DNA from: Escherichia coli
Lineage (GTDB): Bacteria; Pseudomonadota; Gammaproteobacteria; Enterobacterales; Enterobacteriaceae
Strand: one strand, 5' to 3'
DNA length: 64,000 nt
Assembly: GCF_003334255.1 (NCBI RefSeq)
Contig: NZ_QOWU01000006.1
Below the pieces are notes generated by a model, which ran no database searches, was not told the origin of the DNA, and saw nothing but the letters and a program-made list of their open reading frames with translations. Every line of letters begins with the position of its first letter. Positions within the stretch are counted from its first letter, which is position 1. A program made the position numbers and the translations under genes. Shown one piece after another: positions 15,133 to 25,056 of this stretch.

Positions 15133-15557
15133 ATCCACCTCAATTAAAAATTGACCCTGTGAAAAATATGGTCGTTTTATAGGGTCGTCGTAAAAAAGTG
15201 ACGACGGAAATAATGCGCGGCTATTTTAAAAACGAAGGCGAGTCATTCACCAGATAAATAAATCCAGTAAATTTGATTTAGGGCAACAGCGGGTTGCCCC
15301 ATATAGTCATTTGTCTGATTGACAGTGTAGTGCACGCAAAAGATTTAATCCTTTAGGCGTAATAAAAAATAATTTATCATGCTAATTATTTGATTTTGTT
15401 GTTTTTGCAGACTTATCAGCAAGAGGGAGTATAACGCGATTATTCGCTCATTTTTCAGACATTTGCCATGCTTAAATGTGATGTCATCACGTATTAGCAA
15501 GGCCTTTCCCGTTATACTGCCAGCGTAAAGGATAAGTCACATATTTCTGGAGGGGAT

Positions 15558-17216
15558 ATGATTCTTGAGCGCGTTGAAATTGTGGGTTTTCGCGGTATCA
15601 ACCGTTTGTCGTTGATGCTGGAACAAAACAACGTCCTGATTGGGGAGAACGCGTGGGGTAAATCCAGCTTGCTGGACGCCTTAACTCTGCTGCTATCGCC
15701 AGAATCAGATCTCTACCATTTTGAGCGCGACGATTTCTGGTTCCCGCCGGGAGATATCAACGGGCGAGAACATCATCTGCATATTATTTTGACCTTCCGC
15801 GAATCGCTGCCAGGCCGACATCGGGTTCGCCGTTATCGGCCGCTGGAAGCGTGCTGGACGCCATGCACCGATGGCTATCACCGTATTTTTTATCGTCTGG
15901 AAGGGGAGAGTGCGGAAGACGGCAGCGTGATGACACTGCGCAGTTTTCTCGATAAAGACGGACATCCGATTGATGTCGAGGATATTAACGATCAGGCACG
16001 CCATCTGGTGCGTTTAATGCCGGCGCTGCGCTTGCGTGATGCCCGTTTTATGCGCCGTATTCGTAACGGCACGGTGCCAAATGTCCCTAATGTGGAAGTC
16101 ACCGCGCGCCAGCTCGATTTCCTCGCCCGTGAGTTATCCTCACATCCGCAAAATCTCTCTGATGGGCAGATTCGTCAGGGACTTTCCGCAATGGTACAGC
16201 TGCTTGAGCATTATTTCTCTGAGCAGGGGGCCGGACAGGCGCGATATCGTTTAATGCGGCGGCGAGCCAGCAATGAGCAACGAAGCTGGCGCTATCTGGA
16301 TATCATCAACCGGATGATTGACCGACCTGGTGGGCGCTCGTATCGGGTTATTTTGCTCGGCCTATTTGCTACTTTGTTGCAGGCAAAAGGCACATTGCGA
16401 CTGGATAAAGACGCCCGTCCATTGTTGCTGATCGAAGATCCAGAAACCCGTTTACACCCCATTATGCTTTCAGTTGCCTGGCATCTGTTGAATCTTCTGC
16501 CATTGCAGCGCATTGCCACCACCAACTCGGGTGAGTTGCTTTCGTTAACGCCGGTAGAGCATGTTTGCCGACTGGTACGTGAGTCCTCGCGCGTTGCCGC
16601 CTGGCGTCTGGGGCCGAGTGGCTTGAGTACCGAAGATAGCCGACGCATATCCTTTCACATTCGTTTTAACCGTCCGTCATCGCTGTTTGCACGCTGCTGG
16701 TTGCTGGTGGAAGGGGAAACGGAAACCTGGGTTATCAATGAACTGGCGCGTCAGTGCGGACATCATTTTGATGCCGAAGGGATCAAGGTCATTGAGTTTG
16801 CCCAGTCCGGGCTAAAGCCACTGGTTAAATTTGCCCGCCGAATGGGGATTGAATGGCATGTACTGGTCGATGGCGATGAAGCAGGGAAGAAATATGCCGC
16901 TACGGTACGCAGCCTGTTGAATAACGATCGGGAAGCCGAACGAGAACATTTAACGGCGTTACCGGCGCTGGATATGGAACATTTTATGTATCGCCAGGGA
17001 TTTTCCGATGTGTTCCACCGCATGGCGCAAATCCCGGAAAATGTACCGATGAATCTACGCAAAATTATCTCGAAAGCGATCCATCGCTCTTCCAAACCCG
17101 ATCTTGCCATTGAAGTGGCAATGGAGGCAGGACGTCGTGGTGTGGACTCCGTACCGACGCTGCTGAAAAAAATGTTCTCACGCGTGCTGTGGCTGGCGCG
17201 CGGTCGCGCGGATTAA
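15558..17216 (+). CDS. ybjD: OLD-family-like ATPase/nuclease YbjD
   Basis: 552 aa, N-terminal P-loop GENAWGKSSLLDA; conserved chromosomal position. Confidence 0.8.
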   Translation: MILERVEIVGFRGINRLSLMLEQNNVLIGENAWGKSSLLDALTLLLSPESDLYHFERDDFWFPPGDINGREHHLHIILTFRESLPGRHRVRRYRPLEACWTPCTDGYHRIFYRLEGESAEDGSVMTLRSFLDKDGHPIDVEDINDQARHLVRLMPALRLRDARFMRRIRNGTVPNVPNVEVTARQLDFLARELSSHPQNLSDGQIRQGLSAMVQLLEHYFSEQGAGQARYRLMRRRASNEQRSWRYLDIINRMIDRPGGRSYRVILLGLFATLLQAKGTLRLDKDARPLLLIEDPETRLHPIMLSVAWHLLNLLPLQRIATTNSGELLSLTPVEHVCRLVRESSRVAAWRLGPSGLSTEDSRRISFHIRFNRPSSLFARCWLLVEGETETWVINELARQCGHHFDAEGIKVIEFAQSGLKPLVKFARRMGIEWHVLVDGDEAGKKYAATVRSLLNNDREAEREHLTALPALDMEHFMYRQGFSDVFHRMAQIPENVPMNLRKIISKAIHRSSKPDLAIEVAMEAGRRGVDSVPTLLKKMFSRVLWLARGRAD

Positions 17217-18205
17217 CCGCGAAACATCGTGGCCATTTGTGGCTGAATAGCGTCGAGCATCTCATAGCGCCGACGGTATTCAGCCCGTTTTTTACTGGCG
17301 ATTTCGGCAATCTCTTTTCGTGCTATCTGTGCTGGAAGGCGGTAATGGCGTTCAGCATCACATACGCCGCCAACCGATTCCCAGAAAGCGTTGTAATCAG
17401 CGTGGATCTTGCCTTCTTTATCGCGATAACGCAGGCTGCGGTAAATATGCGTTTCATTGCTGACGGCAATAATCTGCTCTACCTGCAAACGTTGGGCAAA
17501 CAGACAGGCCGCTTCCATCACGAGGCGTTTGGGAAATAGCCCGTGGCAGGCTTTCGTCGCATTCTGGATTTCCTGATGTGGAATTTCCCATTTTGCGCCT
17601 TGCAGTCCGCCAATAAACATCGTTCTTTTCCCCTGATATTCACACAGGGTAAACGTGATCTCTGCCAGAGGAATACCTTCGCTGTTGCGGAACAGGATTG
17701 TGCTGTCACCTTCTTTATCCATTGAGATCATCATGGTCAGCTCAAGCGTGAACTGCTCGCCGTTTTTGCCTTCCAGCTTCGCCAGTTGCAGCCCGGGGGT
17801 ATTCAAATATAAGCTGAATTCTTCCGCCGACATACATTCGCGGAGTAACGCATAATGGTAACGTAACGCCTCCAGCAATTGCTTACGGCTAAGATTCGCC
17901 GCAAGGTAAGGGCGATGCAGACGCACAGGCAGTCGCGGCTGGCGCGTTAACAATACATTGAGATTAGGCCAGTGGGAAAGTTCGTTCATCCACTCAACGC
18001 TTAAACGCGGCATAATCAACGAGCGCAGCAAAAATTTCTGGCGAAAACTACGGCGATGCCAGAATTTACCCGGCCGACACTGTCCACGTGCCAGACTAAG
18101 AAAAAGTGACAGGCTGCTGAGAGATTCAGATGGCGTAAAGGTCCGTTCAGTTAGCTGCGACATATTCATGAAATCAATGGTTATACATGGCGTCGATTTC
18201 ACCAT
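17213..18205 (-). CDS. ybjX: DUF535/VirK-like protein YbjX
   Basis: 330-aa ORF in conserved position between ybjD and macA. Confidence 0.75.
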   Translation of the reverse strand: MVKSTPCITIDFMNMSQLTERTFTPSESLSSLSLFLSLARGQCRPGKFWHRRSFRQKFLLRSLIMPRLSVEWMNELSHWPNLNVLLTRQPRLPVRLHRPYLAANLSRKQLLEALRYHYALLRECMSAEEFSLYLNTPGLQLAKLEGKNGEQFTLELTMMISMDKEGDSTILFRNSEGIPLAEITFTLCEYQGKRTMFIGGLQGAKWEIPHQEIQNATKACHGLFPKRLVMEAACLFAQRLQVEQIIAVSNETHIYRSLRYRDKEGKIHADYNAFWESVGGVCDAERHYRLPAQIARKEIAEIASKKRAEYRRRYEMLDAIQPQMATMFRG

Positions 18206-24837: not shown

Positions 24838-24925
24838 GTTCACTGCCGTACAGGCAGCTTAGAAATTCACAGGTAACATACTCCACCCGCCCACCATGTT
24901 CACTGCCGTACAGACAGATAAAATG
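24838..24925. CRISPR. Orphan type I-F CRISPR remnant (two repeats, one 32-bp spacer)
   Basis: Repeat 1 gttcactgccgtacaggcagcttagaaa (24838-24865) matches the I-F consensus; spacer 24866-24897; degenerate repeat 2 gttcactgccgtacagacagataaaatg (24898-24925); no cas genes in window. Confidence 0.75.
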
Positions 24926-24968
24926 CGAAAAAAAAGCTCGCACTTTCGTACGAGCTCTTCTTTAAATA

Positions 24969-25056
24969 TGGCGGTGAGGGGGGGATTCGAACCCCCGATA
25001 CGTTGCCGTATACACACTTTCCAGGCGTGCTCCTTCAGCCACTCGGACACCTCACC
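24969..25056 (-). tRNA. serW: tRNA-Ser (GGA anticodon)
   Basis: Reverse complement reads GGTGAGGTGTCCGAGTGG...GGTTCGAATCCCCCCCTCACCGCCA, 88 nt with long variable arm. Confidence 0.9.

Follow-up and report, generated by a model that had tools for sequence, protein, structure and literature searches.

The gene at 15558..17216 (+ strand) of the 64,000-nucleotide Escherichia coli stretch analysed here (the window) is ybjD (oldB), which is with high confidence a stand-alone OLD-family enzyme, inherited vertically as a core gene of Enterobacterales and without a link to the prophage in the same window. By genomic context YbjD is a Class 1 OLD, yet in structural models its C-terminal region folds like those of Class 2 (GajA-type) OLDs. 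In the ORF list the coding sequence is a single ATG-initiated open reading frame of 552 amino acids plus a stop codon, and a putative Shine-Dalgarno-like GGAGGGG, read from the sequence, occupies 15549..15555 (+), 2 nt ahead of the start codon. With a 2.1-kb query spanning ybjD, the window DNA matched the annotated ybjD of many RefSeq E. coli genomes at 100% identity, which bore out the gene name given in the first-pass annotation; the RefSeq product name is 'ATP-dependent endonuclease'. No regulatory RNA was found with Rfam in the 419-bp aqpZ-ybjD spacer, and a simple sigma-70 scan returned no promoter site upstream of the gene; terminator-like matches inside ybjD from the same scan were unconvincing.

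Earlier literature covers this gene: its OLD homology has been on record since at least 2019, and a paper of 2026 is devoted to it. It was the seed for the OLD family in Schiltz 2019 (PMC6755086), and Atahualpa 2026 (PMC13261556) named it oldB, assigned it to Class 1 and detected its transcript by RT-qPCR. A literature search for b0876 phenotypes returned nothing beyond Schiltz 2019; other papers mentioning ybjD made insertions in the spacer between aqpZ and ybjD or had the gene in a table. As a finding, the gene is of little weight, being already known and unconnected to the prophage of the window, and what is added here is its synteny and selection, the near-invariance of its nuclease residues and the Class 2-like C-terminal region of a protein that is Class 1 by context.

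The distribution of ybjD confirmed its earlier description as a core gene. Of 5426 complete E. coli genomes, 5425 carried it, and orthologues were present in at least 494 species-level genomes; the best 80 were all from Enterobacterales, with identity declining from 98% to 64% from Escherichia to Hafnia, Serratia and Pectobacterium. The order hcp-lysO-(aqpZ)-ybjD-(ybjX)-macAB was kept across Enterobacterales, and the identity of ybjD across genera tracked that of its neighbours. Compared with E. albertii, Ka/Ks was 0.016 for ybjD, 0.022 for aqpZ and 0.024 for macB, and overall the values for ybjD (0.016-0.05) equalled those of the neighbours; purifying selection on ybjD is as strong as on the genes around it. 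The signature of a mobile element, that is, a patchy distribution with absence from most Enterobacterales, was looked for in the distribution of ybjD and was not found. Distant orthologues also lay between housekeeping genes, for example at thiL-pgpA and dxs-ispA-xseB. Together these results show vertical inheritance of ybjD within the core genome of Enterobacterales. Laboratory strains can nevertheless do without it, as IS1 disrupts it in the K-12 strains NCM3722 and WG1. The convergent gene ybjX (VirK/YbjX family; 17213..18205, - strand; ORF list, sequence and RefSeq), whose stop codon overlaps that of ybjD, is given for context only: it was missing, or had diverged strongly, in many of the genera in which ybjD persists, and it was rejected as a conserved partner because outside Escherichia it was absent or 44-76% identical where ybjD was 64-91% identical.

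The first-pass annotation had placed YbjD in the OLD family and proposed a domain search as the check, and this search recovered both expected parts, an ABC/SMC-type ATPase domain, DUF2813, at residues 1-375 (Pfam, E 1.8e-159) and an OLD-like_TOPRIM domain (PF20469) at residues 376-440 (E 7.8e-16), both far beyond chance. PADLOC models for GajA (up to 1.6e-79, the top scores) and Old (1.9e-24), BLASTP similarity to P2 Old and fold matches to OLD proteins agreed with this assignment, and the PADLOC AriA model matched residues 1-51 only. Residues 1-50 also matched AAA_15, AAA_29, AAA_23 and SMC_N in Pfam, and the profile searched against PDB sequences matched chains of Thermus scotoductus (Ts) OLD, GajA, PtuA, SMC, Rad50, RecN and RecF. 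The N-terminal ABC/SMC-type ATPase region defined by these matches corresponds to 15558..16682 (+).

Conservation of the motifs was counted in 115 YbjD relatives with about 30-53% identity. In the Walker A motif or P-loop found by motif scan (G29-ENAWGK35-S36; 15642..15665, +), G29, E30 and G34 were at least 96% conserved, and position 35 was K in 101 relatives and R in 10. The AF2 model places a helical insertion in the ATPase at about residues 160-285 (16035..16412, +; boundaries approximate), where helices 177-195, 202-220, 241-255 and 260-277, of lower pLDDT, lie between ATPase strands; the four-helix dimerisation domain of Ts OLD occupies the same topological place (PMC7049728), and the insertion in YbjD is presumed to be a dimerisation domain likewise. 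The Walker B motif and D-loop, LLLI-E293-D294-P-E296-TRL-H300-P (16422..16460, +; motif scan), were conserved at E293 (102/115), E296 (106/115) and H300 (113/115) and aligned with IDEPELYLHP of P2 Old, in which D299 is the Walker B residue and H306 that of the D-loop (PMC7049728). The ATPase motifs were non-canonical, with E293-D294 in YbjD versus D299-E300 in P2 Old, N323 at the H-loop versus H332, and residues 255-269, the expected place of the ABC signature, poorly conserved in the 115-relative alignment. YbjD may turn ATP over slowly or for regulation only.

The Toprim core (residues 376-470; 16683..16967, +; Pfam OLD-like_TOPRIM) carries the predicted metal-A ligands E385 (115/115), D438 (113/115) and D440 (115/115) and the predicted metal-B ligand E389 (114/115). 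The C-terminal helical domain (residues 471-552; 16968..17213, +), supported by alignment and by a model of the C-terminal region (CTR), would supply D472 (110/115) and E474 (114/115) to metal B and contains K513 (114/115) followed by P514 (115/115). All residues of the predicted two-metal nuclease site are thus invariant or nearly so among the 115 relatives, a conservation pattern that argues for a constitutive chromosomal function in which the nuclease would be needed. We infer the spatial arrangement of the site from the superposition score of the model on 6nk8. Relatives of 800-1900 amino acids were considered as Rosetta-stone fusions and rejected, as in the alignment they had the N- and C-terminal architecture of YbjD with large, poorly conserved insertions and no recognisable extra domain.

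The best PDB fold matches of the full-length AF2 model (pLDDT 85.4) were all OLD proteins, namely GajA (5e-20), Ts OLD (1.4e-17) and retron Eco8 OLD, and the YbjD profile searched against PDB sequences matched Ts OLD (1.2e-21) and GajA (1.3e-19). The first-pass annotation had named P2 Old as a member of the same family; the relationship held (E 4e-12) but is remote, and the C-terminal catalytic region appears Gabija/Class 2-like and not like the solved Class 1 enzyme. The CTR model (pLDDT 93.9) superposed in Foldseek on Class 2 CTRs over its whole length, with about 200 aligned columns (6nk8, E 3e-07 and TMq 0.71-0.73; 6njw, TMq 0.73), versus a TMq of 0.37 on Class 1 Ts OLD (6p74). The structural traits of Class 1, no C-terminal helical domain and an Arg or Lys about 7 residues after the metal-B Glu, were absent from YbjD, in which helices are predicted at 473-490, 500-527 and 534-549 (AF2), position +7 holds an invariant Gly (G481) and K513 is the Lys that is conserved. 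The Class 2 architecture, a Toprim followed by a C-terminal helical domain, was the one found. A mapping of K513 onto the Class 2 catalytic Lys by sequence alone was rejected, as HMM alignment of YbjD with 6nk8/6njv was significant over the Toprim core only; a sub-threshold stretch placing YbjD 'SKPeLA' opposite Xcc 'GKGRFA' was suggestive but not significant.

By context, ybjD stands alone, with neither a helicase nor a retron or AriB as partner. Genes for a helicase or a reverse transcriptase were found neither beside ybjD in E. coli nor beside any family member examined; specifically, no Gabija helicase partner was present within 8 kb of E. coli ybjD or beside five distant relatives, which are also stand-alone. 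For Class 3 (retron Eco8 type), no reverse transcriptase was annotated near ybjD, and Rfam over 13-26 kb returned only a tRNA and a CRISPR repeat, with no msr/msd. The split of Class 4/PARIS into AriA and AriB was not seen, both ATPase and Toprim being encoded by the one 552-aa ORF. The context label 'Class 1' hides a catalytic half that resembles those of Class 2 (GajA-type) enzymes, which bears on the definitions of OLD classes and on the origin of Gabija.

Solved and assayed relatives suggest how YbjD might act. It would oligomerise via the helical insertion; ATP at the Walker A/B sites would control engagement of the heads and so regulate activity; and the Toprim site would cut nucleic acid by two-metal catalysis, with E385/D438/D440 at metal A, E389/D472/E474 at metal B, and K513. 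Both the nuclease and the ATPase activity of YbjD are predictions from these relatives. In the published genetics, the sole functional study, arabinose-induced YbjD gave fewer Bas18 and Bas20 plaques and smaller Bas64-68 plaques and was mildly toxic (PMC13261556). The effect of overexpression needed the ATPase region but neither the Toprim domain nor the three acidic residues in it, and the Walker A lysine was dispensable as well, since K35A kept the anti-phage phenotype; unlike that of P2 Old the effect was independent of RecBC status, without killing of recBC-ts cells, and the Keio ybjD knockout left phage sensitivity unchanged (PMC13261556). Because the Toprim and the Walker A Lys are dispensable and the knockout has no phenotype, the link between the predicted mechanism and the phenotype is unproven. 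YbjD keeps a perfect nuclease site that is unneeded for its sole reported phenotype, and it evolves as slowly as its transporter neighbours.

Two readings of its function, each tentative, have to be weighed against these results. YbjD might be a dedicated single-gene anti-phage defence (Class 1 OLD, 'OldB') that, in the manner of P2 Old or Vibrio cholerae OLD, senses infection and halts the phage by cutting or nicking nucleic acid. The lowered plaquing under induction, a family shared with P2 Old, GajA and retron Eco8 OLD, and strong matches to PADLOC defence models are in its favour, but loss of natively expressed ybjD has no effect on phage sensitivity, and the dispensable Toprim and acidic residues and the lack of recBC-ts killing also count against it (PMC13261556). 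Nor does it sit easily with a core, syntenic and slowly evolving gene that is flanked by housekeeping genes in E. coli and likewise in distant relatives. Typical defence genes are accessory and patchy. We consider this reading possible but doubtful. The other, which we hold no more firmly, is that YbjD is a housekeeping enzyme of nucleic-acid maintenance or processing (repair, replication-associated, or RNA), its anti-phage effect being a by-product of an overexpressed DNA-/ATP-binding head. Core status, a fixed locus, Ka/Ks values equal to those of the neighbours, the housekeeping surroundings of distant orthologues and a nuclease site that is invariant though not needed for the overexpression phenotype all point this way, as does the resemblance of the ATPase head to SMC, Rad50, RecN and RecF, and the archaeal OLD Cran1 offers a precedent, acting in the cell cycle and not in defence (PMC12796447). 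Against it, ybjD is non-essential and carries IS1 in laboratory strains, the literature search found no repair, growth or RNA phenotype, and no conserved partner or operon points to a pathway. A more specific and rather unlikely proposal is that the DUF2813/YbjD clade is a distinct, vertically inherited 'housekeeping' branch of OLDs, an orphan GajA-like nuclease that has a C-terminus of the Class 2 catalytic type but no helicase of its own and whose Toprim-dependent task would be to maintain the genome or RNA, possibly together with core SF1 helicases acting in trans (UvrD, Rep), and not defence, the anti-phage effect being a side effect of overexpressing the ATPase head. Core status, strong purifying selection, an invariant yet dispensable nuclease site and a Class 2-like fold are compatible with this proposal. 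In any case, stable core genes occur in the OLD family, which is known chiefly for mobile anti-phage systems (P2 Old, Gabija, retron Eco8, PARIS).

Two further readings are improbable. That ybjD is a decaying and functionless Gabija (GajA-GajB) relic which has lost its helicase would agree with GajA models being the best PADLOC matches, with the Class 2-like C-terminal region and with the lack of an adjoining GajB-like gene, but the ORF is kept in 5425 genomes, the transcript is detectable (PMC13261556), and the whole DUF2813 clade is stand-alone in E. coli and the five distant members examined. An intact ORF, a Ka/Ks of 0.016 and catalytic residues all retained across the YbjD family are the signature of a functional gene, and we regard decay as very unlikely. 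Still harder to credit is a tie to the prophage of the window, with ybjD as a captured phage old gene or an interacting host copy. The P2-type prophage mentioned in the first-pass annotation is indeed there, at about 40-64 kb of the window beside serS and about 23 kb from ybjD, with P2-family portal, terminase, scaffold, capsid, sheath, tube, tape measure and gpD genes, and the protein family is that of P2 Old. However, ybjD keeps its locus across genera and strains irrespective of prophage, in conserved host synteny and not at the old/tin location of P2-type prophages between the replication genes and cos, and its 28% identity to P2 Old covers a third of YbjD. The serS-site prophage, moreover, differs among strains with identical ybjD (81% and 71% nucleotide identity to the G1/2 prophage). 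No Old homologue was present among the prophage ORFs examined in the window, the large ones being structural (PHROGs), and four cargo-like prophage ORFs had no PADLOC matches. We reject the link on synteny and because none of the prophage ORFs examined was OLD-like; ybjD is not a prophage gene, and its co-occurrence with the prophage is coincidental.

Compared with named systems, the gene is nearest to E. coli K-12 YbjD/OldB (b0876, Pfam DUF2813 family), being the same gene with the same neighbours, aqpZ and ybjX; nothing differs substantively, and it is another strain's allele. P2 Old, the Class 1 archetype (586 aa), is like YbjD a single-gene ABC-ATPase plus Toprim protein, and tblastn with YbjD recovered P2 old from phages. 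BLASTP identity between the two was 28% over residues 252-440 (190 aa, E 4e-12) and 36% over residues 3-53, and an overall identity of 18% has been reported (PMC6755086). Walker A, Walker B, the D-loop His, the Toprim Glu and the DxD are alignable, whereas P2 Old is encoded by a phage, in the old/tin locus adjoining cos, and YbjD by the chromosome; the conserved Lys of P2 Old (K550) follows metal-B E543 by 7 residues, where YbjD has G481 and carries K513 on a later helix; the H-loop His of P2 Old is replaced by Asn in YbjD; and P2 Old kills recBC-deficient cells while YbjD does not (PMC13261556).

The solved Class 1 enzyme, Ts OLD (PDB 6P74), shares with YbjD a stand-alone gene, a helical dimerisation insert in the ABC ATPase (presumed in YbjD), a Toprim and a Glu at Walker B (E276 in Ts OLD, E293 in YbjD), and it was the best PDB sequence-profile match and a strong fold match. 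No C-terminal helical domain is present in Ts OLD (PMC7049728), and the CTR model superposed on it poorly. Class 2 OLD/GajA proteins (B. cereus GajA and the B. pseudomallei and X. campestris CTRs, 6NK8 and 6NJW) have, like YbjD, a Toprim and then a helical domain, which supplies metal-B ligands and the catalytic Lys as is predicted for YbjD, and GajA was the best full-length fold match. Unlike GajA, ybjD is not accompanied by a UvrD/PcrA/Rep-like GajB helicase, either in E. coli or in five other family members, and for this reason it does not count as Gabija. Vibrio cholerae OLD, a Class 1 DNA-nicking defence (PMC12392090), shares with YbjD a single chromosomal gene and an anti-phage phenotype; as cited in PMC13261556, its defence needs ATPase residues and protects at native levels, whereas in YbjD the K35A mutant keeps the phenotype and the knockout has none (PMC13261556).

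The gene at 15558-17216 of the window, on the plus strand, is ybjD, as the first-pass annotation had proposed. The interval is exactly the sole long ORF there, with an ATG start, 552 codons for amino acids and, 2 nt 5' of the start on the same strand, a GGAGGGG ribosome-binding sequence read from the sequence. A 2.1-kb query around it matched numerous RefSeq E. coli chromosomes at 100% identity, and the matching gene is labeled there ybjD, 'ATP-dependent endonuclease'. Its neighbours are also arranged as in E. coli K-12: hcp, lysO (ybjE) and aqpZ are upstream on the opposite strand, and the convergent ybjX, followed by macA, macB, cspD, clpS, clpA and tRNA-Ser, is downstream. In the divergent aqpZ-ybjD spacer (15139-15557; 419 bp, AT-rich), which serves as a neutral insertion site (PMC9203016), Rfam detected nothing, and a simple scan for a consensus sigma-70 site was likewise negative. 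In two laboratory strains, E. coli K-12 NCM3722 (NZ_CP011495.1) and WG1 (NZ_CP099590.1), IS1A splits ybjD, which is annotated there as two DUF2813 fragments, so the gene is dispensable in culture.

Pfam searches placed DUF2813 at aa 1-375 of YbjD (E 1.8e-159), short P-loop matches (AAA_15, AAA_29, AAA_23 and SMC_N) at aa 1-50, and OLD-like_TOPRIM (PF20469) at aa 376-440 (E 7.8e-16); a Toprim domain of the OLD type is therefore present beside the AAA-type matches. PADLOC GajA models matched YbjD at up to E 1.6e-79 and the PADLOC Old model at 1.9e-24. NCBIfam held no equivalog for YbjD, and the P-loop end alone resembled SMC-like defence ATPases and RecF, far under their cut-offs. A tblastn search with YbjD against 50,697 phage records recovered P2 old itself, and BLASTP against the P2 Old protein from AF063097 aligned aa 252-440 at 28% identity (E 4e-12) and aa 3-53 at 36% identity (E 1e-4); the overall identity is 18% according to Schiltz et al. 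2019 (PMC6755086). The BLASTP alignment pairs the Walker A K35 of YbjD with K37 of P2 Old, the Walker B E293 with D299, the D-loop H300 with H306, the Toprim E385 and E389 with E398 and E402, and the DxD residues D438/D440 with D453/D455, and these P2 Old motifs are those mutated by Schiltz et al. (PMC7049728). Together with the fold matches described below, these results support the earlier placement of YbjD in the family of P2 Old, and the homology to P2 Old is real yet remote.

Among 1.84 billion cluster representatives, 1970 YbjD relatives were found, 334 of them with E <1e-30, and conservation was read from an alignment of YbjD with 114 mostly full-length relatives of 500-680 aa, ~30-53% identical (n=115). 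The predicted nuclease residues are essentially invariant across the aligned sequences: E385 (115/115), E389 (114/115), D438 (113/115), D440 (115/115), D472 (110/115), E474 (114/115), K513 (114/115) and P514 (115/115). The predicted ATPase site is conserved though non-canonical. At Walker A position 35, 101 of the 115 sequences have K and 10 have R, and Walker B E293 is kept in 102; the next residue, D294 in YbjD and E300 in P2 Old, is D in 67, E in 28 and N in 10; the H-loop position, N323 in YbjD and H332 in P2 Old, is N in 72 and H in 18; and aa 255-269, the expected site of the ABC signature, are weakly conserved. Schiltz 2020 had already described a Glu at Walker B, a degenerate signature and, for many Class 1 homologues, an Asn instead of His in the H-loop. 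These deviations would fit ATP use that is slow or serves regulation. Some YbjD-family proteins from the search (P0151, P0161, P0163, P0164, P0176, P0196 and others) are two to three times longer, at 800-1900 aa; they retain the N- and C-terminal blocks of YbjD, but the region of the ATPase insert and the part past the Toprim core hold very large insertions of low conservation.

Of 5426 complete E. coli genomes, 5425 had a ybjD match, nearly always in single copy. When one genome was scanned for each species, at least 494 species carried a YbjD relative, and the best 80 were all Enterobacterales, with identity declining steadily from 98% in E. coli and 97% in E. albertii to ~90% in Citrobacter, ~85% in Enterobacter, Klebsiella and Raoultella, and 64-68% in Serratia, Hafnia, Pectobacterium and Brenneria. 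Comparison of E. coli neighbour proteins with the best-relative loci by tblastn showed that the order hcp-lysO-(aqpZ)-ybjD-(ybjX)-macA-macB is held throughout Enterobacteriaceae and partly further out, that YbjD identity parallels that of lysO, aqpZ, macA and macB in every genome compared, and that ybjX is frequently missing or just 44-76% identical. Against E. albertii, Ka/Ks (Nei-Gojobori) was 0.016 for ybjD, 0.022 for aqpZ, 0.024 for macB and 0.065 for ybjX; at larger distances, where Ks is saturated, the Ka of ybjD was level with that of its neighbours. Five distant DUF2813 proteins (~40-53% identity) are encoded by solitary genes amid metabolic or housekeeping genes, as in thiL-pgpA | ybjD-like | dxs-ispA-xseB, and no helicase or reverse transcriptase gene adjoins any of the five. 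The synteny, Ka/Ks values and solitary distant relatives thus confirm and extend the first-pass view of a core-genome gene: ybjD is vertically inherited, strongly constrained and stand-alone, an evolutionary profile unlike that of a usual defence gene. The adjoining ybjX (VirK/YbjX family; 17213-18205, minus strand), whose stop codon overlaps that of ybjD (ATTAAC) and which is listed with it as a convergent 'excludon' (PMC12288877), evolves far faster than all neighbours (57% in Citrobacter, where the rest are at ~90%; Ka/Ks 0.065-0.22) and is absent from several genera.

The P2-type prophage noted in the same window is also present. Past the end of serS (39805), at ~39900-64000, PHROGs identified the gpD-like tail protein (41139-42614), sheath (42409-43605), tape measure (44663-47491), tail fibre (48603-49943), major capsid (58862-59962), scaffold (59980-60849), large terminase (60867-62705) and portal (62711-63754); a 169-aa ORF in the tube position (43605-44114) is labeled 'head closure', although the corresponding ORF of strain G1/2 bears the annotation major tail tube protein. 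The prophage, which is P2-family (Peduoviridae-like), also has the divergent Q-P | O-N layout typical of P2, and its closest deposited phages, P88 and Xuanwuvirus, reach just ~72% nucleotide identity over terminase and portal. Strain G1/2, which has an identical ybjD region, carries another P2-like phage at the same site, with patches of 81% and 71% nucleotide identity, so the phage occupying the serS-side site varies from strain to strain. That ybjD and the prophage share the window is a coincidence. The window stops right after portal, ahead of the old/tin slot of P2, and therefore shows no old gene of the prophage, and four non-structural prophage ORFs had no PADLOC match. A 687-aa ORF between the lysis and tail genes (53813-55879, minus strand; DUF1737, SASA of the sialate O-acetylesterase type, and DUF6645; phrog_143, 983 bits), with no PADLOC match, resembles the NanS-p-type esterases found in Stx prophages; this likeness probably accounts for the numerous Stx-phage matches in the DNA search.

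A remnant CRISPR array (24838-24927, plus strand) lies between clpA and tRNA-Ser (24969-25056). In it, a single intact repeat of type I-F-like sequence, GTTCACTGCCGTACAGGCAGCTTAGAAA (Rfam CRISPR-DR4, 50 bits), precedes a 32-nt spacer and then a second, degenerate repeat, GTTCACTGCCGTACAGACAGATAAAATG. There are no cas genes near it, and it fits the orphan CRISPR remnant reported from the clpA-infA interval of E. coli.

Atahualpa et al. 2026, who proposed the name oldB, detected ybjD transcription and found phage sensitivity unchanged in the Keio deletion; under arabinose induction, YbjD reduced plaquing of Bas18 and Bas20 and made Bas64-68 plaques smaller (PMC13261556). This phenotype required the ATPase region, was unaffected by Toprim removal (aa 378-552) or acidic-residue mutation, and was retained with higher toxicity in K35A, and recBC-ts cells were not killed by YbjD, in contrast to P2 Old (PMC13261556). 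Because the predicted nuclease residues are invariant, we infer that native YbjD function requires the nuclease, and it would therefore differ from the function read out by overexpression. For this native role, a low level of surveillance against foreign DNA or RNA and a maintenance or processing task are about equally plausible. That ybjD, a gene under purifying selection, is a relic, or that it is a prophage-linked gene, is less probable than either.

Domain organisation, motif conservation, fold, solitary context, vertical inheritance and purifying selection are established here for YbjD; by analogy with Thermus scotoductus OLD (Ts OLD), Bp/Xcc OLD and GajA, the protein would oligomerise via its helical insert, its ABC heads would engage in an ATP-dependent manner, and its Toprim site would cleave with two metals, a Lys steadying the transition state. 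The non-canonical Walker B and H-loop, with the K35A hyper-toxicity (PMC13261556), suggest that ATP binding acts mainly as a switch.

An AlphaFold2 model of full-length YbjD from 66 sequences had a mean pLDDT of 85.4 and pTM of 0.83, with confidence lower only in the helical insertion (aa 160-285). Its top solved-structure matches were all OLD proteins, namely Gabija GajA (E 5e-20), Ts OLD (1.4e-17) and retron Eco8 OLD, with PtuA and SMC heads ranking after them, and the YbjD-family sequence profile found Ts OLD (1.2e-21) and GajA (1.3e-19). Since Class 1 and Class 2 C-termini differ, Ts OLD (Class 1) being without the helical domain that provides the catalytic Lys in Class 2 (PMC7049728), aa 366-552 were modelled separately (pLDDT 93.9) and searched against PDB. 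With the whole query aligned, TMq was 0.71-0.73 to the Class 2 C-terminal region of B. pseudomallei (6NK8) and 0.73 to that of X. campestris (6NJW); TMq to Ts OLD was only 0.37. The sequence pattern agrees: Ts OLD (R487) and P2 Old (K550) have a basic residue 7 residues past the metal-B Glu, whereas YbjD has an invariant Gly there (G481) and an invariant Lys, K513, on a later helix. The modelled C-terminus and the Lys placement thus indicate that YbjD, although contextually a Class 1 protein, has a catalytic half probably built like Class 2. YbjD (b0876) is already known; it was the seed with which Schiltz et al. 2019 gathered 837 OLD homologues, and they assigned E. coli to Class 1, isolated genes (PMC6755086). 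Our analysis contradicts neither that study nor Atahualpa et al. 2026, and adds only two points to them: the Class 2-like C-terminus, as modelled, in a contextual Class 1 protein, and its quantified housekeeping-like evolution.
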